From Patescibacteria group bacterium (GTDB lineage Bacteria; Patescibacteriota; Patescibacteriia; Magasanikbacterales; GWA2-37-8), in contig SCQK01000007.1 in NCBI GenBank assembly GCA_004321885.1, positions 128,001 to 192,000 on the forward strand: a stretch of 64,000 nucleotides of DNA. The letters are read 5' to 3'. The position numbers were made by a program, and so were the translations under genes. Numbering within the stretch: the stretch's first letter is position 1; the number at the start of each line of letters is the position of its first letter. Positions 1 to 59,432 of this stretch are shown here, in pieces. The notes beneath the pieces are model-generated. The model saw only the letters and a list, made by a program, of their open reading frames with translations. It was not told the origin of the DNA and ran no database searches.

Positions 1-2264
1 CGCGCTGGCCGGATGCCTTAAAGCTATTAAATCAGGAACTAAACCGGCTAGTTCGCGAGGTTAAGCGCGCCAAACCGATTATTGAACGGCTATTTAAGAA
101 GGAAGCTGATTTAACTGATGCTTATCGTGAATTTGACGCGGATGTCAACAAGATAAAACTAACCTTGGCAGAAGCAAATACCAAGATATCGGCCGGCGAT
201 TTAGAAGCCGCTTTTAGCATTATTGAAATTGATTTTTTTGATCAAATAGATAACGTGGAACAAAATTACCGCTCCATAATTATCATAAGCAATTTAGGCC
301 GCTTTGCTTCCTATCTTAAACAAAACATTACCACAAGCCAAAACGAAATTAAGTCGTTGAAGAAAAAAGGCATTGATGCGAGCGAACTTCAGGATTTGTT
401 AAGTCATATCAAGACCAACGGCAACGATGTTTTGGCATTGATAAAAGCCAAACCCATTGACGAGGATGCGATTCTTTCCGGAATTCAAGAGATGGACGAA
501 TTAAAACAGGATTTTTCCGACAAAGTAAGCGAAGTTACCGATGGAGAAGAGATGTCGTGGGGTAAAGATGGCAGTTTTTTTTCTAAAACAGAACTATCTT
601 CAAAGGCTGTAGAAGCAATAAGTTGGCTACAGAAACAAGTTAACTGGACCGCCTCTGTTCCTGTAACGAGCATGGATGTTCCATCAAGTGAAACAACATT
701 GACCGCGCCTCAGTCTGGTAATCAATCAACCTCAACACCTTCAAGCGCCACACCGGCAACACCAGCCACTCCAGCGGTCTCTTCTTCTGTCAGCGCCGCC
801 CCGGCTTCACCGGCGGTTCCAGCCACGCCCGCACAACCAGCATTAACCGCAGACACGACGGTTCCTTCCACGCCCACAAATCTAACCGCTAATTCTTCCA
901 GTTCTGTTCAAATTAATCTGGCTTGGACCGCTTCAACAGATAATGTTGGTGTGACTGGTTATCGCATCTATCGCGGAGGCGTCCAAATGGGCACTTCAAA
1001 TACCACTAATTATTCCGATACAGGACTTTCTTCGTTAACTACTTATTCTTATACTGTGGCGGCTTATGATGCGGCTGGTAATGTTTCTCCTCAATCAACT
1101 TCGGCAAGCGCCACAACACAGGCATTAGACACAACTCCGCCTGTCATCTCCTCGGTTTCAGTATCTCTTACCTCCGATTCTGCCACCATTACTTGGACAA
1201 CCAATGAATCTTCTGATTCACAAGCGAGTTATGGGTTGACATCCTCATATGGCAATACAACTCCATTGAACTCTTCTCCGGTTGTTTGGCATTCTGTTTC
1301 GCTTTCAAATTTAACTGGTGGCACAACTTTTCATTACAAAGTAATCTCCACAGATGGTTCAGGGAATAAAACCGAAAGCGGAGATGCAACTTTTACAACA
1401 ACATCTTCTGTCTTGCCAGCACCGAGTTTTCTTACGAAATGGGGTTCTCGGGGTTCTGATAATGGACAGTTTAATTCTCCTTTCGGTATCGCCGTAGATG
1501 CCAGTGGCAATGTTTATGTGGTGGACAGCCACAATCACCGTATTCAGAAATTCACCAGCAATGGCGTGTTTACCACCAAGTGGGGCTCTTCGGGTTCTGG
1601 CGACGGGCAGTTTTCTTACCCTTTCAGCATCGCCGTAAATGCCAGTGGTAATATTTATGTGACGGATGACAATAAGCATATTCAAAAATTTACCAACGAC
1701 GGCACCTTTATCCTCAAATGGGGCTCTTATGGTTCTGGTAATGAGCAGTTTTCTAGTCCTGAGGCTATCGCCGTAGATGCCGGTGGCAATGTTTATGTGG
1801 TGGACAGACCTAATAACCGCGTCCAAAAATTTACTGGGGATGGCACATTTATTACTAAGTGGGGCTCTTCGGGTTCTGGCGACGGGCAGTTTCAAGATCC
1901 TCGTGGTATCGCCATAGATGGTAGTGGCAATGTTTATGTGGTGGATTCCTCCAATAGCCGTGTCCAAAAATTTACTAGCGATGGCGCTTTTATCACTAAG
2001 TGGGGCTCTTCGGGTTCTGGCGATGGACAGTTTTTTACTCCTTTCAATATCGCCGTAGATGCCAGTGGCAATGTTTATGTGGCGGACGGCTACAATAATC
2101 GTGTTCAAAAATTTACCAGCAATGGCGTGTTTATCACCAAGTGGGGCTCTTCGGGTTCTGGCGATGGACAGTTTTCCCTTCCTCGTGGTATCGCCATAGA
2201 TGGTAGTGGCAATGCCTACGTGACGGAAGCCGACAACAGCCGCGTCCAAAAATTCGCTCCGTAA
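1..2264 (+). CDS. 5'-partial surface protein: Ser/Thr/Pro-rich linker, two fibronectin-III-like domains, six NHL (six-bladed beta-propeller) repeats
   Basis: The reading frame is open from the window edge; the track's 165 start is a TTG and there is no in-frame ATG. Six repeats of the form KWGSSGSGDGQF..P.GIAVD.SGNVYV.D..N.RVQKFT are typical NHL blades. Upstream are Fn3-like 'WTASTDNVGVTGYRIYR' and 'ITWTTNESSDSQASYG' segments and an STPA-rich linker. Confidence 0.75.
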   Translation, partial: RWPDALKLLNQELNRLVREVKRAKPIIERLFKKEADLTDAYREFDADVNKIKLTLAEANTKISAGDLEAAFSIIEIDFFDQIDNVEQNYRSIIIISNLGRFASYLKQNITTSQNEIKSLKKKGIDASELQDLLSHIKTNGNDVLALIKAKPIDEDAILSGIQEMDELKQDFSDKVSEVTDGEEMSWGKDGSFFSKTELSSKAVEAISWLQKQVNWTASVPVTSMDVPSSETTLTAPQSGNQSTSTPSSATPATPATPAVSSSVSAAPASPAVPATPAQPALTADTTVPSTPTNLTANSSSSVQINLAWTASTDNVGVTGYRIYRGGVQMGTSNTTNYSDTGLSSLTTYSYTVAAYDAAGNVSPQSTSASATTQALDTTPPVISSVSVSLTSDSATITWTTNESSDSQASYGLTSSYGNTTPLNSSPVVWHSVSLSNLTGGTTFHYKVISTDGSGNKTESGDATFTTTSSVLPAPSFLTKWGSRGSDNGQFNSPFGIAVDASGNVYVVDSHNHRIQKFTSNGVFTTKWGSSGSGDGQFSYPFSIAVNASGNIYVTDDNKHIQKFTNDGTFILKWGSYGSGNEQFSSPEAIAVDAGGNVYVVDRPNNRVQKFTGDGTFITKWGSSGSGDGQFQDPRGIAIDGSGNVYVVDSSNSRVQKFTSDGAFITKWGSSGSGDGQFFTPFNIAVDASGNVYVADGYNNRVQKFTSNGVFITKWGSSGSGDGQFSLPRGIAIDGSGNAYVTEADNSRVQKFAP
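1426..2264 (+). repeat. six tandem ~141-bp near-identical DNA repeats, each encoding one NHL blade
   Basis: 'aagtggggctcttcgggttctggcga(c/t)gg(g/a)cagttt' recurs with a period of 141 nt. Confidence 0.8.
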
Positions 2265-12754: not shown

Positions 12755-13732
12755 TTAATCCACTATTTCCAGCACGCCGACGCTCATAAAATCGCCCTTG
12801 CGCGCTTTGATTAATGAATCATAAATTTCCATCCAGCGTTTAACTTCAATAATAGTCATGCAGCCGCGCGAATGCCCACCTGCGTGGAGATATCTTTCGC
12901 CGCTATGACCAATCTTAAACCAAGTCATGGCCCGTTTTGATTCATCCATATAACTCTCACCGCCCTTATGTGCGTAATCCGGAATTTCAATATCATATAA
13001 CCCTTTTTCCCAAGGCATATCCGGATAATCAGTTGCTTGATATTTTTTATCTTTCAAGAAGAAAACTTTTTGGGAGATGGAATACTTGGCGCGAATCATC
13101 GGCTTGTGATTAACGCCGGAAATAAACCAGGAGGAACCGTTGTCGCGCAATTTGATGGATGCCATTTTACCGCGATACGGACCTTCTAAGATAATAAAAT
13201 ACTCTCTTTCGTTAGATACTCGTTCCGGTTTTAGTTTTAAAAAAGCGGGCACTGGTCTTACTAACTTACTATCTTCAATCCTCACAATTAAAAACCCTTG
13301 CGAACCGTCTATATCAGGCACATAACGCACCGCATCAGAGACAACTGCTTCCAAGATTATTTCAAAAAGCGCGGTTTTTGAACCCCATGATTTGCCCCAA
13401 ATTGAACGGGTTTCTTTTATTTGAACCTCAAAAGGAAACTTTTGGGGTTTATTGTCGGAGGTATCAATTTTTATAGTGCTTTGCGCCCTGCCGACGTCGT
13501 TAAATAAAATATCTTTTTCAATAACGGTAACCGTAACCTCGGTTTTAAATTGCTGTTGATCGGTTTCAATTTTCCTCATTTCGCTGTCTATTTTCTCTGT
13601 CGTGCCGGCTTTAATTCTTTTATCCACGCGCAAAAACTTTCCCAGTATTTCAATTTCTATACGGATATCGTCGCCGATAGAATCGCCGCTGTATTTTATT
13701 TTTGTCAGTTTTAGCTGAACGGATTTAAGCAT
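12755..13732 (-). CDS. protein with a C-terminal L,D-transpeptidase (YkuD)-like catalytic domain
   Basis: FKIGHSGERYLHAGGHSRGCMTI matches the His...Ser-x-Gly-Cys spacing of YkuD catalytic sites. There is no signal peptide, and it forms an operon with 12228-12752. Confidence 0.45.
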   Translation of the reverse strand: MLKSVQLKLTKIKYSGDSIGDDIRIEIEILGKFLRVDKRIKAGTTEKIDSEMRKIETDQQQFKTEVTVTVIEKDILFNDVGRAQSTIKIDTSDNKPQKFPFEVQIKETRSIWGKSWGSKTALFEIILEAVVSDAVRYVPDIDGSQGFLIVRIEDSKLVRPVPAFLKLKPERVSNEREYFIILEGPYRGKMASIKLRDNGSSWFISGVNHKPMIRAKYSISQKVFFLKDKKYQATDYPDMPWEKGLYDIEIPDYAHKGGESYMDESKRAMTWFKIGHSGERYLHAGGHSRGCMTIIEVKRWMEIYDSLIKARKGDFMSVGVLEIVD

Positions 13733-13747
13733 AAATTTTTTGGCCTT

Positions 13748-22031: not shown

Positions 22032-22106
22032 ACCCCCTCCCCTATTAGGGGAGGGGGAACCCAATTACTCCTCCCCCTTTTAGGGGGAGGATAAAGGAGG
22101 GGGTAT
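22032..22106. repeat. two family A hairpin repeats
   Basis: accccctcccctattaggggagggggaaccc and aattactcctcccccttttagggggaggataaaggagggggtatt. Confidence 0.85.
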
Positions 22107-22108
22107 TT

Positions 22109-22705
22109 ATGCCACAACAAAACTATGCACAACCATTAGTACAAGAACAGCCCGACCCAATGGCGCCTGATGTCTATGGCGAAGGACCCGCGCGCGCAAC
22201 TGAATCGGAAGAATCCGACGAGCAAAAAGCCGCGCGCGAAGCCGAAGAGGAAGAACGGGAAAACGACCTCGCGCAAAAACGGCAAAAAGACCGCGTGGGC
22301 ACTGGCGTTCGCGGAGCCGTCAATCAAAGCAAGTTCGCCCAAAAAGCTATGGAAATAAAAAATTTTCGCAAAATTAAAAATATAAAAAAAGAAATTCAAG
22401 AAAATGAAAAGGAGAAAACCAAGAAAGAAAAAGAAATAAAAAAAATCAGAAGAAAAATTTTCTGGGGCTGGGTCAGAACCATTGGACTGGTGATAATTAC
22501 GGGCGGCGTAGGCACTTTCATGCTTTTGAAAAAAATGTGGGATTCAAAATCTGAACAGGATAAAATTAAAAAATTAAAAAAGGAAATAAAAGATTTGGAG
22601 AAAAAAATGAAAGAAAAAGAAGAGCAGGTTCAGGATTTAATGATAATTTGGAAGAAAAAACAGCGCGAACAGCCGCAGGAATTTGATAACGCTCCGGCGT
22701 ATTAA
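22109..22705 (+). CDS. hypothetical Lys/Glu-rich coiled-coil protein with one TM helix
   Basis: Low-complexity KEKE repeats flank a GWVRTIGLVIITGGVGTFMLL helix. Confidence 0.5.
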   Translation: MPQQNYAQPLVQEQPDPMAPDVYGEGPARATESEESDEQKAAREAEEEERENDLAQKRQKDRVGTGVRGAVNQSKFAQKAMEIKNFRKIKNIKKEIQENEKEKTKKEKEIKKIRRKIFWGWVRTIGLVIITGGVGTFMLLKKMWDSKSEQDKIKKLKKEIKDLEKKMKEKEEQVQDLMIIWKKKQREQPQEFDNAPAY

Positions 22706-24616: not shown

Positions 24617-24724
24617 CTGGGGCTCCATAGTCCGAAGTCTCGCCGCTGGCTCCATACTGTGTGTGGAGCCACAATGCACCCTGGCTCCATAGTCCCCGAC
24701 TCAATCGGGGCTGTGGAGCCAGCC
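24617..24724. repeat. family E nested hairpin repeats (GGCTCCATAG ... CTGTGGAGCC)
   Basis: ctggctccatactgtgtgtggagcc and ctggctccatagtccccgactcaatcggggctgtggagccagcc; a related copy sits inside folC (40468-40555). Confidence 0.8.
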
Positions 24725-24731
24725 ATCAATT

Positions 24732-26231
24732 ATGTCCCGTAAAATTTTTCTCACAATCTTTCTCGCCGCGCTTTTGTTTTCTTTTGCCAGCGCTGATTTC
24801 ACGCTGGCGGCGGATTATTGCCGCGTAAAATTAGATGTGACTGCTGTCAGTAAAACCACTCTTGCTTGCTACGACATTAGCGCTTTATCAAATTATCCAA
24901 AGTTCAAAGGAAAAGAGGCGGGAGATATCTGCAATGAATTTTACGGCGACTTGGAAAACCAGGAACCGACCGTTAAAAACTATACAGCCCATGAATGTGT
25001 TTCGGCAGAGTCTTTGGAAGAGTGCAAAAAAGGAAATGAAGCGCCGGCCTGCCCCAAAACAAAACTGGAAGTAATCACAAAATTAACAGCTGAACTAAGA
25101 CCGCCGGCCACGGCTATCCGCATTCCCGGGCTTTCTTTCAGCGAGATAAACAAAAATATTACCGAAGACGCGGCGGGAAATAAATATCTCAACATCCCCT
25201 GGATAGGTGAAATGCTTACAGCCGTGTACAAATTCGCCATCACCATTGTCAGCATCGTGGCCGTGATAATGATTATCATTCAGGGCGCGCGGGTGGTGAC
25301 ATCCGGCGGAGGCGAAGCCAAAATGGACGCGTACAAAAAAATCATTCAGGCCATCATCGGCCTGGCCATCGCCTGGGGTTCTTACGCGATTTTATATAAC
25401 ATCAATCCGGATTTGGTGACCTTCAAGGCGTTGAAGGTGAGATATATCCAACCCATACCAATGCCAGAATTCGCGGATGATTTACAAACCACAAAAAATG
25501 ATACAACCAGTGATTCAAGCGGGTATTCTTCTGTGTTTGCAAATTGTCCAATAACTCTATCAGCTCCATTTTCGCCAAGTGGAAACCCCGCAAACGAAGC
25601 GCGAACAAAAGAATTTTATGACAAAATAAATTCGGTTATTAAGGGTACTACTTTAAGCGACAAAATATTACAAATCGCCGAAGCCGCTTCAAAATGTCAG
25701 ATTCATTTTGGCTCATGCGGAAGAACAATAGGAACTGTTTATACACTGGCTGGTATTACTACAAAAAGTTACGGCAGTGATTGCTTAACAAAACCAAAAG
25801 GATGCTGGACGCATGAACAGTCAAAACAACTTAACACCATATCAAGTAGCTTGATAAAATCATTTCCAAACTACCGTTGCGGACGAGATTGTAAAGGAAA
25901 CAAAGACAGCCCGAGCGGCTGTGCTAATTCGGACAAGGAAGCGAGAAAAAAAATGTTGAGCACTCTGCTATCTGACTCCAACTTGACCAGTAAAGGGTGG
26001 CCGGATACTTGGGCTAATGATTTAAAACCTGGAGATACATTCTGGGTTTACAATGGGAATACGAGTTGTTCCGGATTGCATACCGCGTTATTTTTAGGGT
26101 GGGCGTCAGATGGCGTCGCAAAAGTTATCCAAGGAGCAGCTGGCAAAGCGGTTGGTATGGGGTCCATTTGCATCAAAAAAAGTTGTGGGGAAAGAATGAA
26201 TCCTTTAATAAAAACTTTTCGGCCACAATGA
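24732..26231 (+). CDS. secreted Cys-rich protein with a pilin-like (TrbC/VirB2-like) double-TM hairpin and a C-terminal CHAP/NlpC-P60-like Cys-His hydrolase domain
   Basis: Signal peptide; TM hairpin VYKFAITIVSIVAVIMIII...IIQAIIGLAIAWGSYAIL; C-terminal ...FGSCGRTIG... (Cys) and GDTFWVYNG...GLHTALFLGW (His), which matches CHAP-type motif order. Confidence 0.45.
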   Translation: MSRKIFLTIFLAALLFSFASADFTLAADYCRVKLDVTAVSKTTLACYDISALSNYPKFKGKEAGDICNEFYGDLENQEPTVKNYTAHECVSAESLEECKKGNEAPACPKTKLEVITKLTAELRPPATAIRIPGLSFSEINKNITEDAAGNKYLNIPWIGEMLTAVYKFAITIVSIVAVIMIIIQGARVVTSGGGEAKMDAYKKIIQAIIGLAIAWGSYAILYNINPDLVTFKALKVRYIQPIPMPEFADDLQTTKNDTTSDSSGYSSVFANCPITLSAPFSPSGNPANEARTKEFYDKINSVIKGTTLSDKILQIAEAASKCQIHFGSCGRTIGTVYTLAGITTKSYGSDCLTKPKGCWTHEQSKQLNTISSSLIKSFPNYRCGRDCKGNKDSPSGCANSDKEARKKMLSTLLSDSNLTSKGWPDTWANDLKPGDTFWVYNGNTSCSGLHTALFLGWASDGVAKVIQGAAGKAVGMGSICIKKSCGERMNPLIKTFRPQ

Positions 26232-30057: not shown

Positions 30058-31461
30058 TTATTCATTGTCCTCTGCTATTCCTTTTCTTGCTCTCTCTCGT
30101 TCTTCTCTGGCGGCTTTTGACGAAAATGGTTTATGTGTAACTATATCTATCCCTCCTGCTCCTTTTGCAACATGACTTTCAATTTTTTTGTATGGCTTGG
30201 GTGTTTTTGGTTTATCAATCACAGGCGCCGCATATTGCTCCATCACAAACGGTTTCTTTTCCGGCGGTATAAATACTTGCGCCCGCGGACGCTTATTCCT
30301 GAATATTGTTTTTGTTTTGTCTACTACTACATCTGTTTCATCTACTACTACATCCTTTTCACTTATCGCTTCTTCTTCGCCCGCCTGAAATTCGGCTATC
30401 TCGTGCGCCGCACGCTTTTTCGCCTGATAATTCGCCGCTTCCTGCGCCCCGACAGCGCTCATCGCCAATCCGGCCGCGGCCACGCCAGTAGCCAGCTTGC
30501 CTATTTTTCTTCCAACTTTTTTACCCAGGTCCGGTACTGTCTTATCCGGCGCCACCTCCCGAGCTCGCTCCGTCTGTGGAATATCCTCTATCCTCTTCTC
30601 TGTCTTTTGTGCAGACAATAACTCTTCTTGTATCTGTAGTTCCAGATTAACTATGTCAGCCTTAAGTTGGGCTTTTTGTGCGCGCTTTTCTTTGCTGAAT
30701 ATGGAAAACACGCCAAACCTCGCCAGCTCCGCTTTCTTGGCCGCGATTTGCGCCGACAATTTATCCATCACGTCGCCCTGTTTAAACCATTTCTTGTCCT
30801 CATACGAAAAATCATCTTCCAACAAATTTTCATCAATACTCGTCGGCGCGCCATTAGCCTCTTGGTGGACAGCCGCCCACTCCTCCATATCTTTCGCTTT
30901 CACGAATGTTTCTTTCGGCTTTTTGTATATCGCCTTGCCAACTGTTTTCAGCTCTTTTGTTCCTGCCCTATATTCCGCTATTTTATCCTTAAATTCATCC
31001 AATTTTTTCCCTAATTCATCCACTTCCTTCTTGGTTGCTACAACATCAAAAAATTTTTCCAAAATTTTAACATCTAAATCAAACTCTTTCTTTTCTTCTT
31101 TTGACAAACCGCTTTTTGCTTCAACAAATTCATTTCTTGCTCTATCTAATTCTCGCTTTCTATGTGTTTCTTCCAAGACACCTCTTCCAATCAGTTCCTC
31201 AACTTCTTCATCTTCGCTAACAATATCTGTGTCCTTTATTCCTTTTTCCCTGGCCCATGGGACGCGTTGTTCTTGAGTAGACGGCGGTAACTCTCTACTT
31301 TCTTGAACTTCAAACATATCCCCTTCGTCTAATTCAATGTCGTTATCTTCGGTTGGAACGGGTGGCATTTTCGCTCGTTTTTTATCCGCTATCAAACGCC
31401 CTAATTCTTCGGAGCTTAATCTGCGGGCTAAGCCGCCTTCGCCTCTTCTTGGCATATACAA
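30058..31461 (-). CDS. hypothetical charged/coiled-coil protein with a central TM segment
   Basis: Glu/Lys-rich; LATGVAAAGLAMSAVGA helix; no family recognised. Confidence 0.45.
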   Translation of the reverse strand: MYMPRRGEGGLARRLSSEELGRLIADKKRAKMPPVPTEDNDIELDEGDMFEVQESRELPPSTQEQRVPWAREKGIKDTDIVSEDEEVEELIGRGVLEETHRKRELDRARNEFVEAKSGLSKEEKKEFDLDVKILEKFFDVVATKKEVDELGKKLDEFKDKIAEYRAGTKELKTVGKAIYKKPKETFVKAKDMEEWAAVHQEANGAPTSIDENLLEDDFSYEDKKWFKQGDVMDKLSAQIAAKKAELARFGVFSIFSKEKRAQKAQLKADIVNLELQIQEELLSAQKTEKRIEDIPQTERAREVAPDKTVPDLGKKVGRKIGKLATGVAAAGLAMSAVGAQEAANYQAKKRAAHEIAEFQAGEEEAISEKDVVVDETDVVVDKTKTIFRNKRPRAQVFIPPEKKPFVMEQYAAPVIDKPKTPKPYKKIESHVAKGAGGIDIVTHKPFSSKAAREERERARKGIAEDNE

Positions 31462-31524
31462 AATGGTTAATTGTTTTTAATGTCTGCTCTCTTTTTAATA
31501 TTATACACCAAATCCAAACGTCAA

Positions 31525-34383: not shown

Positions 34384-34386
34384 GCG

Positions 34387-34460
34387 TGCACGCATCTGGA
34401 CTCGGACCAGAGACCTCTGTCGTGTGAGGACAGCGCTCTAACCAACTGAGCTATGCGTGC
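34387..34460 (-). tRNA. tRNA-Val (anticodon CAC)
   Basis: Reverse complement GCACGCA-TA-GCTC-AGTTGGTTA-GAGC-G-CTGTC-CTCACAC-GACAG-AGGTC-TCTGG-TCCGAGT-CCAGA-TGCGTGC-A. Confidence 0.85.
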
Positions 34461-41115: not shown

Positions 41116-41169
41116 TAACCGCATATTGATAACCGCATATTTGACTAAACGCGATTTTTGCTTTATTCT
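41113..41169 (+). promoter_or_regulatory. tandem direct repeat (TGATAACCGCATAT x2) abutting a TTGACT-17-TATTCT promoter-like element upstream of topA
   Basis: gtgataaccgcatattgataaccgcatatTTGACTaaacgcgatttttgcttTATTCT. Confidence 0.35.
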
Positions 41170-41179
41170 TTATTAAATG

Positions 41180-41228
41180 ACCATTACCCCCTCCTCGCCT
41201 CCCCCTTCAAAAGGGGAAGAGAAATAAT
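41180..41228. repeat. family A hairpin in the topA leader
   Basis: ccattaccccctcctcgcctcccccttcaaaaggggaagagaaataat. Confidence 0.8.
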
Positions 41229-41229
41229 T

Positions 41230-43449
41230 ATGTCCACTCTCGTCATCGTGGAATCGCCCACCAAGGCAAAAACCATTTCCAAATTTCTCGGCAAAGACTA
41301 CACAGTGAAGTCGTCTTTCGGGCATCTGCGCGATTTGCCCAAAAGCAAACTGGGCGTGGATACGGAACACAACTTTGAACCGCACTACATCGTGAGCCGC
41401 GCCAAGACCAAAATCGCCAAGGAACTGAAATCAGCGGCCAAAAAATGCGATGAAGTGCTATTCGCCACTGATGAAGACCGCGAGGGCGAGGCCATTTCCT
41501 GGCACCTGGCCTTTATTTTAGACATAGACCCGGAAGACGCCAAGCGCATTGTTTTTCATGAGATAACCAAAACAGCCATCACCCACGCCCTGCAAAATCC
41601 CCGCCCCCTGGACATGAAGATGGTGCACGCCCAGCAGGCCCGCCGCGTGCTGGACCGCCTGGTCGGCTACGAACTCTCGCCTTTCCTGTGGCGCAAAGTG
41701 GCGCGCGGGCTGTCGGCCGGACGGGTGCAATCCGTGGCCGTGCGCCTGATCTGCGAACGCGAACGCGAAATCCAGGCCTTCAAATCCGAAGAATACTGGA
41801 CCCTGGAAGGAACTTTTATAGCGCCCGAAAAAGCCGGGGAACCAAAAGAATTTTCCGCCAAACTTTTTTCCATGCCGGGCAAAAAGCTGGAAAAACTTGA
41901 CCTCAAAAACAAAGAACAAATTGACAAAATTTTATCCGACTTAAAAGACGCGCGCTACGCCGTCGCCGGCGTGGAAGAAAAAAAAATAAAGCGCGTTCCC
42001 CCGCCCCCGTTCACCACTTCCGCGCTCCAGCAGGAAGCGCATCACCGGCTGGGATTTTCGGCCAAGCAGACAATGATGCTGGCCCAGCAATTATACGAGG
42101 GCGTGGAACTGACCGGCGAGGGCGCGGCCGGTCTTATCACCTACATGAGAACCGACTCGGTAAACCTGTCGGAAAAATTTTTGGACGACGCCAAAAATTA
42201 TGTGCAAAAAACTTTTGGCAGCCAATATGCCCTAACGGCTCCGCGAGTCTTTCGCAACAAAAGCAAAAACGCGCAGGAAGCGCACGAATCAATCCGCCCC
42301 ACCGAAGCCGGCCGCGCGCCCGACCAGCTGAAAGACCATTTGGAAAAAAATCAATTCAGGCTTTACGATTTAATCTGGCGCCGCGCCCTGGCCACGCAAA
42401 TGGCCGCGGCCGAGCTCAAAGCCACGGCCATAGACATTGCCTGTGACAAAAATTATGATTTCAAAGCCAACGGCCAGCAAATTATTTTTGACGGCTTTTT
42501 GCAATTGTATCCGGACAAATCAAAAGAAAACTATTTGCCGCGCCTGAAAAAAGACGACGAAGTAAGTTGCAAAGAATTAAAACCCGAACAGCACTTCACC
42601 GAGCCGCCGGCGCGCTACAACGACGCCACGCTCGTGAAAACCCTGGAAGATTACGGCATCGGCCGGCCTTCCACCTACGCCCCCACCATCGCCACCATAG
42701 AAGACCGCGGCTACATTGAACGCGACGACAAAAAACGGCTGGCGCCCAAAGAAATCGCTTTTTTGGTAAACGATTTGCTGGTCAAACATTTCCCTCATGT
42801 CGTTGATTTCAAATTCACGGCCGAAATAGAAGACAGCCTGGACCAAATCGCGCGCGGCCAAAAACAGTGGCAGCCGGTGGTGGCGGATTTCTACGGGCCC
42901 TTTGAAAAAAATCTGCGCCAAAAAGACCAGGAACTGAAAAAAAGCGACATCGCGCAGGAAAAAACAGACGAGGTATGCGAAAAATGCGGGTCGCCCATGC
43001 TCATCAAAATGGGGCGCTTCGGCAAATTTATGGCCTGCTCCAATTTCCCGGAATGCAAAAACACCAAAAATCTAAACGGCGGCAAAAGCGCCGAGCCAGA
43101 GCCCACCGACGAGATATGCGAAAAATGCGGGTCGCCCATGCTAAAACGTCAGGGCCGCTATGGCCCCTTCCTGGGCTGTTCCAAATATCCGGCCTGCAAA
43201 AATATCAAAAATATTGACGTAAAAATAAACCTTAAATGCCCAAAGTGCGGCGCGGGCGACGTGGTGGCCAAGCGCAGCAAGCGCGGCAAAACTTTTTACG
43301 GCTGTAACCGCTACCCGGACTGCGATTTCGCCCTGTGGGATAAACCGACGGGCGAATTGTGCCCTGACTGCGGCAAGCCCCTGGTGTTCGGCAAAGAAAA
43401 AACCAGATGCTCAAACAAAGAATGCTCATACGAAAAAAATCCCGCTTAA
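41230..43449 (+). CDS. topA: DNA topoisomerase I
   Basis: Toprim MSTLVIVESPTKAKTI; active-site region; C-terminal C4 zinc ribbons (CEKCGSPM, repeated). The start is at 41230, not the track's 41158. Confidence 0.93.
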   Translation: MSTLVIVESPTKAKTISKFLGKDYTVKSSFGHLRDLPKSKLGVDTEHNFEPHYIVSRAKTKIAKELKSAAKKCDEVLFATDEDREGEAISWHLAFILDIDPEDAKRIVFHEITKTAITHALQNPRPLDMKMVHAQQARRVLDRLVGYELSPFLWRKVARGLSAGRVQSVAVRLICEREREIQAFKSEEYWTLEGTFIAPEKAGEPKEFSAKLFSMPGKKLEKLDLKNKEQIDKILSDLKDARYAVAGVEEKKIKRVPPPPFTTSALQQEAHHRLGFSAKQTMMLAQQLYEGVELTGEGAAGLITYMRTDSVNLSEKFLDDAKNYVQKTFGSQYALTAPRVFRNKSKNAQEAHESIRPTEAGRAPDQLKDHLEKNQFRLYDLIWRRALATQMAAAELKATAIDIACDKNYDFKANGQQIIFDGFLQLYPDKSKENYLPRLKKDDEVSCKELKPEQHFTEPPARYNDATLVKTLEDYGIGRPSTYAPTIATIEDRGYIERDDKKRLAPKEIAFLVNDLLVKHFPHVVDFKFTAEIEDSLDQIARGQKQWQPVVADFYGPFEKNLRQKDQELKKSDIAQEKTDEVCEKCGSPMLIKMGRFGKFMACSNFPECKNTKNLNGGKSAEPEPTDEICEKCGSPMLKRQGRYGPFLGCSKYPACKNIKNIDVKINLKCPKCGAGDVVAKRSKRGKTFYGCNRYPDCDFALWDKPTGELCPDCGKPLVFGKEKTRCSNKECSYEKNPA

Positions 43450-43459
43450 AACGGGATTT

Positions 43460-45016
43460 TTGTTTCCGCCCGCCGCAGTTGAAAAAAGAAGCGAAGCCTG
43501 TATAATGGAAGTTATGCGCGAAATCATTCTCAAAAACGACCCGGAACTCAAGGACCTCCTGGATGAACTAAAAAATTATTGCCGCAAAGACGACCTGATA
43601 ATGGCTCGCCTGGTTTATGATTTCGCGGACAAGGCGCATGAGGGGCAGATGCGCAAATCAGGCGTGCCGTACATAAAGCATTGTCTGGCCACGGCCTACA
43701 TTTTGGCCAAAATGAAGATTGACATCGGCATTATTATCGCCGCTCTGCTTCACGACGTGCCCGAGGACACCCATGTCACGCTGGAAGAAGTGGAGAAAAA
43801 TTTCGGCCATGACGTGGCCTCGCTGGTAAAAGGCGTCACCAAATTGGGCAAGCTGAAATATCGCGGCGTGGAAAGATACATTGAGAACCTGCGCAAAATG
43901 TTCGTGGCCATGGCCGAAGACATCCGCGTAATGATTATAAAATTCGCGGACCGCATCAACAACCTGGCCACGCTCGACGCCCTGCCGCCCAAAAAACGCC
44001 ACCGCATCGCTCTGGAAAGCCTGGAAATTTACGCCCCCATTGCCAACCGCCTGGGTATGGGCGAATTCAAAAGTCTACTGGAGGATTTGTCTTTTCCGCA
44101 TATCTATCCCAAAGAATATGAAAAAGTTTTTCAAGTCAGACAAGATTACCTGGCCGGACAGCAGGCCTATTTGGACCGGGTGATGCAAATCGCGAGGGAA
44201 GAAATGACCGCCGCCGGCATCAATTGGAGCGACGTGCACGGCCGCGAAAAAACCTTGTACAGTTTGTATAAAAAAATACTGAGCAAGGGCTGGGACAACG
44301 TGGACAAAGTGTACGACATCGTGGCCATCAGAATCATCGTGGGCGACGTAGGCGACTGCTACGCGGCCCTGGGCATTATCCACAAACTGTGGCGCCCGCT
44401 CAAAGGCAGAATAAAAGATTATATATCCCAGCCCAAGCCCAACGGCTACAAATCATTGCACACCACGGTTTTTTGCGCCGAGGGCAGAATCGTGGAATTT
44501 CAGATTCGCGACGCGGAAATGCACGGCGAGGCCGAGCACGGCATCGCCGCCCACTGGCATTACGACGAACAGGGCGCTAAAATTCCGGCGCGCGACATCA
44601 ACTGGGCCGTGGAGCTGGCTTCCATCCAAAAAAATATTTTGGAAAAAATTTCCGACCTCAACGAGCTGAAAGTGGACTTTTTCCGCAACCGCATTTTTGT
44701 TTTCACCCCCCAGGGCGACGTGATGGACCTGCCCGAAGACGCCACGCCCATTGATTTCGCCTACAACATTCACACCGACGTGGGCAACCATTGCAACGGC
44801 GCCAAGGTCAATGACCAGATGGTCTCTCTGGATGCGCCCTTAAAAAGCGGGGACGTGGTGGAGATTATTATGGACAAAAACCGCAAAGGCCCCAGCCCGG
44901 ACTGGCTGAAAACCGTAAAAACCCACTCAGCCAAATCGCGCATCAAATCCAATCTCAAACATAGCCGCTCGTCTTTGTGGCTGCAAATGATTTTGCCGAA
45001 GCCGAAGAAGAAGTGA
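43460..45016 (+). CDS. bifunctional (p)ppGpp synthetase/hydrolase, RelA/SpoT family (short form)
   Basis: HD hydrolase LLHDVPEDT; synthetase DYISQPKPNGYKSLHTTV; TGS-like C-terminus. The start may be the internal ATG at 43475. Confidence 0.88.
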   Translation: MFPPAAVEKRSEACIMEVMREIILKNDPELKDLLDELKNYCRKDDLIMARLVYDFADKAHEGQMRKSGVPYIKHCLATAYILAKMKIDIGIIIAALLHDVPEDTHVTLEEVEKNFGHDVASLVKGVTKLGKLKYRGVERYIENLRKMFVAMAEDIRVMIIKFADRINNLATLDALPPKKRHRIALESLEIYAPIANRLGMGEFKSLLEDLSFPHIYPKEYEKVFQVRQDYLAGQQAYLDRVMQIAREEMTAAGINWSDVHGREKTLYSLYKKILSKGWDNVDKVYDIVAIRIIVGDVGDCYAALGIIHKLWRPLKGRIKDYISQPKPNGYKSLHTTVFCAEGRIVEFQIRDAEMHGEAEHGIAAHWHYDEQGAKIPARDINWAVELASIQKNILEKISDLNELKVDFFRNRIFVFTPQGDVMDLPEDATPIDFAYNIHTDVGNHCNGAKVNDQMVSLDAPLKSGDVVEIIMDKNRKGPSPDWLKTVKTHSAKSRIKSNLKHSRSSLWLQMILPKPKKK

Positions 45017-54680: not shown

Positions 54681-57600
54681 ATGCAAGCAAAAATTGAACT
54701 GCCCAAGGCGCCAATCGGCGCTATCACTCCCGCGCCCATCGTGGACGAGATGCGCAAATCATATCTGGAATACGCCATGAGCGTGATTGTTTCCCGCGCC
54801 CTGCCTGACGTGCGCGACGGCCTCAAACCGGTGCACCGCCGCATTTTGTACGCTATGTGGAACATGGGCCTGCGCCACAACGCCAAGTTCCGCAAATCGG
54901 CGCACGTGGTCGGCGAGGTGATGGCGAAATACCATCCGCATGGCGACTCGGCAATCTATGATTCCATGGTGCGCATGGCGCAGGATTTTTCCATGGGCCA
55001 CACGCTGGTGCACGGCCAAGGAAACTTTGGCTGTTTCACAAAAGATACCAAAGTCAAATTAACTGATGGCCGTGGTTTGAATTTTGAAGATTTAATCAAA
55101 GAATACGAATCGGGAAAGAAAAATTTTACTTACTCCATAAACAATTCCGGTCTAATTTCCATTGCCGAAATAAAACATCCCAGATTAACCAAAAAATCCG
55201 CTGAAATAATGAAGGTGGTATTGGATAACGGCGAAGAAATCAGATGTACCTTGAATCACCTGTTCATGTTAAGAAATGGAAGCTACAAGGAAGCAAAAGA
55301 TTTACAAGCCGGTGAATCGCTGATGCCCTTGTATCAAAAAATTTCCGAAAAAACCGACAAGTTAAACCGCGAAGGATACATCTTAATCCACCAAAACAAA
55401 ACCGGCGAATGGGTGCCGGCCCACCACTTGGCGGATAATTTTAATCTGAATGAAAAAAAATATGCTATAACGCGCGGCAGAGTTCGTCACCATGTTGATT
55501 ATAATAAATTAAATAATAACCCGGACAATATCATTCGCATGCGCTGGGGCGAACACTGGAAAATTCACTACTCGCACGCGAAAGAAATGCATCAAAATAA
55601 TGAGTACGTAAAAAAACTTGCCGATGGCAGAAAAAAATTCTGGGCCGATAATAAAAATAGGAAAAAATACGCGGAAAGAATTTCTGTCCGCAATATTAAG
55701 AATTGGAAAAATTCGGAATACCGCGAAAAAACGCGTCAATTCCTTAGCGAAACAAACAAGGAGTATTTAAAGAACCATCCGGAAAAAATAGCTGAAATTA
55801 AAAAGACGGCTTCGGCCACTTTTAAAAAATTATGGTCAATACCTTATTATAAAAACTTATTCCACGATAAGATCGTCGCCGCGAACAAAAAAAGAATATC
55901 CAACAATACTGGCAAGAAAAAATTCTTGACTATCTGCAAAGAGGCGTTAAATCGCTTTAAGACAATTAATGAACAATCATACGAGCATGCCCGAAAAAAA
56001 GTTTACCCATATGGACGCGCTACGATGTGGCAGACCGGCTTCAAAAAATACTTTGCTGAAAATTTGGATACACTGACGCAAGAAGCGGTAAAAAACCACA
56101 AGGTGACCAAAATTGAATTTTTGAATGAAAAAGAAGATGTGTTTGATATTACGATTGATAAGTGGCACAATTTCGCTTTGGCCTCCGGAATTTTTGTACA
56201 TAACTCAATGGACGGAGACAACGCCGCCGCCTACCGCTACACCGAAGCCAAATTGGAATCATTGGCCGAAGAAATACTCGCCGACATTGACAAGGAAACG
56301 GTAAACTTCGTCCCCAACTACGATGGCTCGCACAACGAACCGACCGTCCTGCCGGCCAAGGTCCCCAACCTCTTGCTGAACGGCACAGTAGGTATTGCCG
56401 TGGGCATGGCCACTTCCATTCCCCCGCACAATCTGGGCGAACTCTGCGACGGCCTGATAAAACTGATTGACGACCCGGAAACCACGGTGGAAGAACTCTC
56501 GGAAATAATCAAGGGGCCGGACTTCCCCACCGGCGGCATCATTTACAATAAAAAAGATATTTTGGCCGCCTATTCCACGGGTCGCGGCGGCATTGTCATA
56601 CGCGCCAAAGCGGAAATACAGGAAAGCAAATCAGGCCAGTTCCAAATCATAGTGAGCGAAGTGCCTTACCAAATAAACAAAGCGGCGCTGATAGAAAAAA
56701 TCGCCGAGCTGGTGCAGGAAAAAAAGATAGACGGCATCAAGGACCTGCGCGATGAAACCAACAAAGACGGCGTGCGCATCGTTATTGAACTAAAAAAAGA
56801 TTCATATCCGAAAAAAGTTTTAAACCGCCTGTTCCAGCTCACCGAACTGCAGACCACTTTCCACACGAACATGCTCGCTCTGGTGGACGGCATCCAGCCG
56901 CGCGTTTTGAATCTCAAAAACGTCTTGGAAGAATTCATCAAACACCGCCAGGAAATAATCCGCCGGCGCACCGAGTTTGACTTAAACAAGGCCAAGGAGC
57001 GCGCCCATATTTTGGAAGGCCTGAAAATGGCGCTGGACAAAATTGACGCCGTGATAAAAACCATCCGCGCTTCCAAAGACAAGGACGAGGCTAAAAAGAA
57101 CTTGATGTCCAAATTCAAATTCACCGACCGGCAGGCCGTGGCCATTTTGGAAATGAAACTGCAGCAGCTGGCCAATTTGGAAAGACAAAAAATTGAGGAT
57201 GAATTGAAAGAGAAAAAACTGCTGATAAAAGAGCTGGAATCAATACTGGCTTCCAAAACTAAAATTCTGCAAATAATCAAAAAAGACACGGCCGAGTTGA
57301 AGGCCAAATACGGCCGCGAACGCGGAACGCAAATAGTAAGCCACGGCGTGAAGGAATTCACCGTGGAGGACTTGGTGCCGAACGAACCCACGATTATAAT
57401 GATTACCACCGACGGCTATATCAAGCGCCTGCCGCCGGACACCTTCCGTCAGCAATCGCGCGGCGGTAAAGGCGTAATCGGCGTTACCACCAAAGAAGAA
57501 GACAGTGTGGAACACTTACAGGCAACCAACACGCACGACAATATCTTGTTCTTCACCAACCGCGGACGCGTATTCCAGTTGATGGCCTATGATATACCGC

Positions 57601-58319
57601 AAGCCAGCCGCACGGCCAAGGGGCAGGCTCTAGTTAATTTTCTGCAACTGGCGCCCAATGAAAAAGTGACGGCCTTGCTGGGCATGAGCGAGCTGGAAAA
57701 AATTAAATTCCTGGTCATGGTGACGCGCCAAGGGCTGATTAAAAAAACCGCGCTGGAAGATTTTGCTAATGTGCGCAAGAGCGGTCTTATCGCCATCAAA
57801 CTGAAACCGAACGACAATCTGGAATGGGTCAAGCCATCCACCGGCGCGGATGAAATATCCATCGTCACTAAAAAGGGTCAGGCTATCCGATTTAAGGAAA
57901 AAGACGTGCGGCCAATGGGGCGCGGGGCCAGCGGCGTGCGCGGCGTGCGCTTGCACACGGACGACGAAGTGATTTGTATGGATATCGTTGACCCGAAAAA
58001 CGTCTCGCTGGAGTTGTTTATTGTGGGCGAAAACGGTCTGGGCAAACGCACTCCCCTGGCGCAATACAAAGTGCAAGGACGCGGGGGCAGTGGCATCAAG
58101 ACCGCGGCCATCACGGATAAAACCGGATTCCTTATCCACGCCAAGGTCATAGACAAAGTGGAATCGGCCGAGCACGATTTGATACTGATGTCGGCCAAGG
58201 GCCAGGTTATCCGCTTGCCATACAAATCTGTTTCGGTCTCGGGTCGCGCCACCCAGGGCGTGCGCCTGATGCGCTTCAAAGAGGGCGGCGACAAAGTGGG
58301 AAGCGTGACGTTGTTGTAA
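54681..58319 (+). CDS. gyrA: DNA gyrase subunit A interrupted by an in-frame intein (aa 118-508)
   Basis: N-extein ...HGQGNFG, then the intein, then C-extein [17 protein letters not shown] (catalytic Tyr region), GyrA box and a C-terminal beta-pinwheel. Confidence 0.93.
55032..56204 (+). mobile_element. GyrA intein (391 aa) with an HNH-type homing-endonuclease domain
   Basis: Begins with Cys (CFTKDTKV), ends ...GIFVHN, followed by a +1 Ser. An internal HNH motif [28 protein letters not shown] is present. Exactly 1173 nt, in-frame. Confidence 0.85.
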
Positions 58320-58364: not shown

Positions 58365-58366
58365 GT

Positions 58367-58437
58367 GCCCTCGGCGCGAATCGAACGCGCATCACCAGCT
58401 TCGGAGGCTAGTGTCCTATCCATTGAACGACGAGGAC
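58367..58437 (-). tRNA. tRNA-Arg (anticodon CCG)
   Basis: Reverse complement GTCCTCG-TC-GTTC-AATGGATAG-GACA-CTAGC-CTCCGAA-GCTGG-TGAT-GCGCG-TTCGATT-CGCGC-CGAGGGC-A. Confidence 0.85.
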
Positions 58438-59432
58438 TAAAATATCCGGCGCAATTTTCTTAACCAGCCGTATACCTTACACTTTTTTTTATTAATAATC
58501 AAGTCAAAAGTGCCCGGGGCTTCTTTGTAGGCGCCGCCAAAACCGAGTTTGAAACGAGTGACACCGGCGTATTGGTGGCGCGGTTCACCTTGCGGCGCGA
58601 TACCGAAAAAATCATAAAACTTGTAGCCCAGCTTTTTTCCCAACTTAATTCCTTCCCATTGCAATAGATACGGGGCCATCAAATGGCGGCACGCGTAATC
58701 GGACGCGCCGTACAGATAAGTAAAGGTGCCACCAAACCCGACAAACACCGCCGAAGCTACGGGCGCGTTTTCGTGATAAGCCGTGAGCTGATAGACAAAA
58801 TCTGAACTGATGACTTTTTTGTAATGCTCCTCCGGGTGGGTCTTGAAATTATCCCGCTTGGCCGTCTCTTTTTCCAATTTGATAAAAACATCCGCGTTCT
58901 TTTCGTTGGCGATTCGCAAATTTTTTCGCGCCGCCAAATTTATATTGTAGCGCGTTTTTTGACCCATGCCGGCAAGCAGTTCATCCTCGGACTTGATTAA
59001 GTCCAAAATCAACGTGGCGCGAGGGGTGATGTCTATTGTCTTGTTCGCCCCCTCCGGAACCTGTTCCGGTTCAACGCGGAAAAACACGCACTTTTTGGAT
59101 TTCAGATAATCAATCAAAGTCTTATATGTTTCGTCAAGGGATTCTTCGCTTCGCTCAGAATGACAATTGGAAATTGGAAATGCTTCACTTCGTTCAGAAA
59201 AAGGGAAATTGGAAATTCCAACAGGTCCTTTGGGGCAAAAGGCGTATTTCCAGCCAAACGGCAAATCAACGTACACAATCTGGGCCCAAGCCAAAACAGC
59301 GCCGTTTTCCTCTATTTCCAAACGCTCAACTTTTTTGCCCTCGGCAATCAAAATATCACCCCATTCCCATGATTGGGAAAAAGGCAGATTTTGAGGCCAA
59401 TTCGCGCTATTTTCCACGACTCTCATCTGCAT
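58437..59432 (-). CDS. FemAB-family peptidoglycan interpeptide-bridge aminoacyltransferase
   Basis: FemAB-like fold signature ...YKFYDFFGI...FKLGFGG at the C-terminus. It contains in-frame family B/C insertions (59138-59220). Confidence 0.7.
   Translation of the reverse strand: MQMRVVENSANWPQNLPFSQSWEWGDILIAEGKKVERLEIEENGAVLAWAQIVYVDLPFGWKYAFCPKGPVGISNFPFSERSEAFPISNCHSERSEESLDETYKTLIDYLKSKKCVFFRVEPEQVPEGANKTIDITPRATLILDLIKSEDELLAGMGQKTRYNINLAARKNLRIANEKNADVFIKLEKETAKRDNFKTHPEEHYKKVISSDFVYQLTAYHENAPVASAVFVGFGGTFTYLYGASDYACRHLMAPYLLQWEGIKLGKKLGYKFYDFFGIAPQGEPRHQYAGVTRFKLGFGGAYKEAPGTFDLIINKKKCKVYGWLRKLRRIF
59138..59220. repeat. composite insertion in the femAB-like gene: a family C half element (59138-59165) plus family B heptamer arrays (59164-59220); encodes ...NFPFSERSEAFPISNCHSERSEE
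   Basis: gggattcttcgcttcgctcagaatgacaattggaaattggaaatg...gggaaattggaaattcc. Confidence 0.8.

Follow-up and report, generated by a model that had tools for sequence, protein, structure and literature searches.

A probable class-1 intein with a predicted HNH homing endonuclease in gyrA of a Patescibacteria group bacterium

Analysis of a 64,000-nt stretch of contig SCQK01000007.1 (the whole stretch is hereafter called the window) showed that the gyrA gene of this Patescibacteria group bacterium is interrupted by an in-frame insert located 12 codons before the catalytic tyrosine, between Gly117 and Ser118 of the mature protein. Very probably, the insert is a 391-aa class-1 intein at GNFG/SMDGD that carries an HNH homing endonuclease resembling I-HmuI. 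The gene itself is a normal, essential gyrA, the 1212-aa product of which would have to be spliced. The intein is real but ordinary: although rather divergent and to all appearances intact, it belongs to a GyrA allele that already exists in the databases but is little described, within a large HNH-intein family.

The gyrA insert and its splicing residues

The original prediction of a 1212-aa gyrA product containing a 391-aa in-frame element proved accurate in coordinates, frame and length: the insert comprises 1173 nt, i.e., 391 codons, and occupies residues 118–508 of the precursor (Table 1). The N-terminal junction reads ...HGQGNFG/CFTKDT, with the Cys codon TGT at positions 55032–55034, and the C-terminal junction reads ...GIFVHN/SMDGD, with the Asn codon AAC at 56202–56204 directly followed by the Ser codon. 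The predicted Cys start, His-Asn end and subsequent Ser can thus be read directly from the junction codons. The catalytic Tyr, located in the segment AAAYRYTEA, is residue +12 of the C-extein (56238..56240) and aligns with Tyr123 of Bacillus subtilis GyrA in the alignment to 4ddq. This agrees with the claim that the insertion lies just N-terminal of the catalytic Tyr segment.

Removal of the insert leaves a GyrA protein of 821 aa, the first 495 residues of which were searched against the PDB. Residues 20 to 495 gave a gap-free match to B. subtilis GyrA (4ddq; E 1e-179), and Staphylococcus aureus GyrA likewise aligned without a gap across the junction. Both alignments cross GNFGS(V/M)DGD...AAMRYTEA unbroken. 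Thus, a check that had been proposed along with the original prediction, namely whether the flanks join into contiguous GyrA, came out in its favor: the alignment to 4ddq continues without a gap through GNFG-S(V/M)DGD. Against the NCBIfam gyrA equivalog, the exteins reach 1122 bits.

The insert scores far beyond chance against intein profiles and, judging from its sequence, represents a class-1 intein with intact splicing residues that would be expected to splice. It exceeds the curated cut-offs of Pfam Intein_splicing (PF14890; 84.3 bits vs. a cut-off of 35.8, E 1e-23), NCBIfam intein_Nterm (TIGR01445; 37.6 vs. 24.5, over residues 1–79) and NCBIfam intein_Cterm (TIGR01443; 23.7 vs. 15.6, over residues 369–391), and an NCBIfam model of an RtcB family with inteins also recognizes it (E 5e-43). 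In an alignment of the insert with 39 homologues (40 sequences), T73 and H76 of block B, D372 and H379 of block F, and H390-N391 of block G are invariant. Cys1 of block A is conserved except in one aligned fragment with Ser, and the +1 Ser is at least 90% conserved. Consequently, the residues expected of intein blocks A/B and F/G, the second check that had been suggested, are all there (C1, T73-x-x-H76, D372/H379, H390-N391 and the +1 Ser), and the description of the junction residues as canonical is borne out. The insert also has the characteristics of a HINT fold. Its C-terminal lobe matches DnaE inteins in a sequence search of the PDB, where intein matches were weak overall.

Table 1. Features of the intein-bearing gyrA gene, with positions in the window.
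Feature	Position	Strand	Basis
gyrA ORF, 1212 aa	54681..58319	+	ORF list and translation
gyrA N-extein, 117 aa, ends ...HGQGNFG	54681..55031	+	ORF and translation; GyrA structure alignment; NCBIfam gyrA equivalogs above cut-offs
Whole intein, 391 aa, Cys1 to His390-Asn391	55032..56204	+	
N-terminal splicing lobe, ~residues 1-105, block A Cys1, block B T73-L-N-H76	55032..55346	+	TIGR01445; invariant T73/H76; beta-rich model
Predicted HNH nuclease core, ~residues 107-187	55350..55592	+	
HNH motif, residues 153-179 (H153 H154 ... N162 ... N166 ... H175 ... H179)	55488..55568	+	
About five predicted helical repeats of ~20 aa, residues 188-290, motif x-[ND]-[SP]-E-Y-[RK]-x-K ... W	55593..55901	+	Model helices; motif read from sequence
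Predicted C-terminal four-helix subdomain of endonuclease, residues 294-353	55911..56090	+	Model
C-terminal splicing lobe, residues 355-391, block F D372/H379, block G H390-N391	56094..56204	+	TIGR01443; invariant residues
gyrA C-extein, 704 aa + stop, first residue +1 Ser nucleophile (56205-56207)	56205..58319	+	Pfam DNA_topoisoIV; six DNA_gyraseA_C stretches

In the splicing pathway that we propose, the 1212-aa precursor would be translated as a whole, and Cys1, aided by T73-x-x-H76 of block B, would form a thioester through an N-S acyl shift. The +1 Ser would then attack this thioester in a trans-esterification. Cyclization of Asn391, aided by His390 as well as by D372 and H379 of block F, would free the intein, and an O-N shift would join the exteins into an 821-aa GyrA with the catalytic Tyr 11 residues past the ligated Ser.

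The window is an unremarkable piece of chromosome and encodes DnaE, PheT, a ClpB-like ATPase, RecG, TopA, RelA/SpoT, a FemAB-family protein and seven tRNAs. A search with the family HMM detected no second intein copy in the window, Pfam searches of DnaE, RecG, the ClpB-like protein, TopA and others revealed no other intein, and Rfam found no family in the window except tRNA. ARAGORN predicted seven tRNAs compared to six by Rfam; tRNA-Val(CAC) at 34386..34460 (-) was called by ARAGORN and is absent from Rfam at the gathering threshold. A tRNA-Arg(CCG) at 58365..58437 (-) is encoded on the strand opposite to gyrA, 46 nt past the gyrA stop codon, and abuts the end of the FemAB-family ORF (58437..59432). 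In addition, the TopA frame (41149..43446) and the RelA/SpoT frame (43229..45013) overlap by ~218 nt (43229..43446) in different reading frames. A frameshift at this location was rejected because the two ORFs correspond to TopA and RelA/SpoT, and the overlap probably reflects a later true start of the RelA/SpoT gene.

Predicted HNH nuclease and helical repeats

The HNH motif and endonuclease that had been proposed for the insert are backed by several sequence and model comparisons. H154, N162 and N166 are invariant and H153, H175 and H179 at least 90% conserved in the 40-sequence alignment. In the predicted model, the HNH residues are carried by two strands (151–154 and 167–170) and a helix (172–187), and the motif and the model together point to a beta-beta-alpha-metal motif. 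Pfam HNH gave no match for the whole intein (E<=1) or for its middle 247 aa (E<=10). The PHROGs family phrog_7545 (“HNH endonuclease”) matches residues 107–193 (E 7.5e-6), and two relatives of the intein, P0130 and P0146, pass the threshold of Pfam HNH_3 (PF13392; 39.3 and 44.7 bits, respectively, vs. 24.8). The HNH_3 match of P0130 falls on the stretch that is aligned with residues 129–175 of the present intein. In its predicted structure, the insert resembles a characterised HNH homing endonuclease, I-HmuI, with a match that is only moderate. Overall, indirect but consistent evidence assigns the inserted nuclease to the HNH type.

The nuclease core is followed by the predicted helical repeat array, with model helices at residues 190–205, 207–226, 228–248, 250–268 and 271–283. 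Among the alleles at the GyrA site, the corresponding ~20-aa W/E-Y-R-K helical repeat motif was counted 0–7 times. The array is presumed to be a DNA-binding module, and such a role for both the repeats and the C-terminal helical subdomain, which is possibly helix-turn-helix-like, is suggested by analogy with I-HmuI.

The freed intein would serve as a homing endonuclease directed at gyrA alleles that lack it. Positioned on its target by the repeat array together with the C-terminal helical subdomain, the nuclease would use its beta-beta-alpha-metal site (H154, N162/N166, H175/H179) to nick or cut the DNA near the conserved GGnCAnGGnAAyTTyGGn/TCnATGGAyGGnGAy. Repair from the intein-bearing copy would then insert the element into the intein-less allele.

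Target site, relatives and origin of the insert

The first 495 aa of the spliced extein served as the query for a scan of GTDB species representatives, and 80 GyrA loci were retrieved. The nearest of these, with 74–81% identity, are from Candidatus Magasanikbacteria MAGs and contain no intein, followed by other Patescibacteria. None of the 80 retrieved loci gave a tblastn hit to the present intein and all of them match the query contiguously, but the ranking favors unbroken matches, so that intein-bearing near relatives could be ranked out. An uninterrupted GNFG/S motif was read in 79 loci, and the remaining one is a contiguous match. Conservation of the target DNA is high (GGnCAnGGnAAcTTnGGn/tcnaTnGAnGGnGAn; the intein-less site of locus L001 reads CATGGCCAAGGAAACTTTGGTTCCATGGACGGAGACAGC), and the flanks in the window agree with it at 26/26 of the positions that are at least 90% conserved.

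The G/C content changes from 58% to 37% to 52% along the gene, abruptly at both junctions, and GC3 is 0.43 in the intein compared to 0.67 in the exteins (0.74 in the N-extein). Codon choice differs as well, with Asp GAT:GAC ratios of 14:2 in the intein vs. 13:35 in the exteins and Leu TTA:CTG ratios of 12:4 vs. 3:40, and host-like codon usage extends to both junction codons. This contrast in codon usage, together with the lack of an intein in the nearest GyrA relatives retrieved, suggests horizontal acquisition of the intein from a donor of lower G/C content. Composition by itself does not settle the matter, since five other ORFs in the window (3..2261, 12758..13747, 22049..22702, 24693..26228 and 30061..31476) share a low GC3 of 0.40–0.44, compared to a window mean of 0.57. 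These five ORFs may have been acquired horizontally or may represent fast-evolving surface proteins; the first one, which is cut off by the start of the window, encodes an NHL-repeat/fibronectin-III protein.

A search with the intein alone against 5.8 billion clustered proteins yielded 380 hits. The best matches are GyrA fragments with identical junctions and 45–60% identity over the full length, and the closest intein relative among the 380 hits is 60% identical. A scan of JGI metagenomes revealed no intein with more than 60% identity; thus, there is no direct sign of very recent mobility. The proteins that were fetched include 39 complete inteins at the GNFG/S site with lengths of 148–523 aa (mode 391–393 aa). 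Depositors label them as Patescibacteria, Nanoarchaeota/Woesearchaeota, Omnitrophica and Euryarchaeota, and some relatives at this site have already been named “intein-containing DNA gyrase subunit A” by NCBI. They share the GN(F/W)G site, a CFT(K/A)DT start and a G(I/V)FVHN end followed by S-x-D-G-D, as well as the order HINT, HNH, helical repeats, HINT. In contrast to the 391-aa intein described here, some alleles are devoid of an endonuclease (148–263 aa) or carry expanded repeats (441–523 aa). Moreover, the host extein of the present intein is Magasanikbacteria-like, and the relatives of the intein at the GNFG/S site are at most 60% identical to it. The range from 148-aa mini-inteins through full-length forms of 391–393 aa to expanded forms of 523 aa is the pattern expected if homing proceeds in cycles, with invasion followed by endonuclease decay and loss.

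This range of forms also bears on the alternative that survives best, in which the insert is a true splicing intein with an endonuclease that is inactive or without naive targets, and in which the element is a fixed, vertically inherited passenger of this lineage rather than currently mobile. The truncated and mini-intein forms show that endonuclease decay is common at the GNFG/S site, and a nearest relative at 60% identity with no closer copy found, as well as the lack of a direct Pfam HNH match, would be in line with such a passenger. However, all of the conserved HNH residues (H153, H154, N162, N166, H175 and H179) are intact, the 391 aa correspond to the modal full length, codon usage has not been ameliorated towards that of the host gene, and the closest sampled GyrA relatives are without the intein. 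We consider a passenger unlikely, while giving it serious weight.

The abrupt drop in G/C content at both junctions could also be expected of a metagenome assembly chimera, in which the gyrA intein of a lower-GC organism was stitched in via conserved flanks; these flanks are among the most conserved gyrA DNA, and the nearest relatives lack an intein. Yet homing yields exactly such a compositional pattern, and three further observations led us to reject a chimera as highly improbable: the host-like codon usage continues right up to the junction codons, the DNA shared at the site is ~14–20 nt long with degenerate third positions, which we judge to be shorter than typical assembly k-mers, and two in-frame joins would be needed. 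An in-frame insertion domain that does not splice, or a gyrA that has become a pseudogene, for which we found no specific support, was rejected as scarcely credible, since the conserved GNFGS motif would be interrupted by the insert at a distance of 11 residues from the catalytic Tyr, the splicing residues are without exception intact and invariant, the ORF is open over 1212 codons with exteins that score so strongly as gyrA, and the window contains no second gyrA.

Significance and comparison with known inteins

An intein with an HNH homing endonuclease, the reading we favor, enlarges a GyrA allele other than the well-studied mycobacterial one by a divergent member that is full-length and seems intact, and leaves current understanding unchanged. 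When GyrA sequences are filtered by length or alignment, such an intein-bearing gene will be lost or misaligned. In one study, intein-containing GyrA sequences were removed from the dataset (PMC9348778). The allele is common to Patescibacteria- and DPANN-labelled sequences and has relatives on viral contigs, which makes it a useful marker of gene flow in ultrasmall organisms. Its mini-intein forms (148–190 aa, +1 Ser) are candidates for use as splicing tools.

Whether the insertion represents a new site or allele had been left as a question. The site is indeed distinct from the mycobacterial one, but it is not new to the databases, from which 39 complete inteins at GNFG/S were retrieved. Mycobacterial GyrA inteins (Mxe and Mle; PDB 1am2) are inserted directly after the catalytic Tyr and are followed by a +1 Thr, whereas the present intein lies 12 residues upstream of the mycobacterial site and is followed by a +1 Ser. 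With neither the insertion point nor the +1 residue of the mycobacterial allele being found here, and with a distance of 12 residues between the two sites, the GNFG/S intein belongs to a different allele. In line with this, the gene scores 886 bits to NCBIfam GyrA_w_intein (NF038098), below the cut-off of 1850, which indicates that the exteins match this model and the intein does not. Full-length mycobacterial GyrA inteins carry a LAGLIDADG nuclease rather than an HNH nuclease. For M. leprae, intein-deletion primers place the gyrA intein between PAAMRY and TEARLT (PMC6658535).

One GyrA from outside the window (P0021; labelled Nanoarchaeota by NCBI) contains two inteins, 12 residues apart: a 449-aa intein of the HNH type at the GNFG/S site and a second one, which starts at AAMRY/CVTGDT, at the mycobacterial site. 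In the open-access literature searched, we found no description of a GNFG/S GyrA intein allele, and nothing specific on a second named GyrA site, on HNH GyrA inteins or on inteins of Patescibacteria/DPANN. Novikova 2016 gives GyrA inteins by phylum only.

More distant relatives are inserted in GyrB at GDSAGG/SAKQGR and show 30–36% identity over the whole 391 aa. GyrA- and GyrB-site inteins are homologous over their full length. Both insertions follow a Gly within one of the conserved catalytic motifs of the gyrase subunits, and the GyrB-site inteins share with the present one the HNH motif, W/Y-R-K helical repeats, a VFVHN/S end and the +1 Ser. In contrast, they differ in the host subunit, in the target DNA and in their modal length of 434–435 aa with more repeats; accordingly, the GDSAGG/S insertion point of the GyrB allele is not that of the present intein, the host of which is GyrA. 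We presume that the GDSAGG/SAKQGR inteins are of the type of the Synechocystis sp. PCC6803 GyrB intein. The Synechocystis intein was reportedly the first HNH intein to be reported, in 1997.

An exhaustive HMMER search for the family retrieved 4755 cluster representatives (50% clustering) at E<=1e-3, 786 of them at E<=1e-30. Many of the matches are proteins of 1000–3000 aa with several matching stretches, and a protein of 3009 aa (P0127) has 10 stretches that match the HNH-intein family. Dozens of distinct insertion sites were seen in the junction flanks of family members, and relatives with 25–43% identity are found on at least 232 IMG/VR viral loci. A far-reaching and, in our view, rather doubtful reading would unite the GyrA- and GyrB-site inteins in one HNH-intein superfamily, in which the repeats serve as a modular DNA-reading array that, as repeats are gained, lost or substituted, enables retargeting to new conserved sites and thereby movement across CPR, DPANN and phage genomes. 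What speaks for it here is the variation in repeat number. If the repeats were to follow a decipherable recognition code, they would amount to a DNA-binding scaffold of a new, programmable kind that is joined to a nickase.

The characterised nuclease with which we compared the insert, I-HmuI of Bacillus phage SPO1 (PDB 1u3e), nicks one strand. Its identity to the present nuclease is 16%. I-HmuI is a free-standing, intron-encoded HNH homing endonuclease, whereas the predicted gyrA nuclease sits in a HINT domain.
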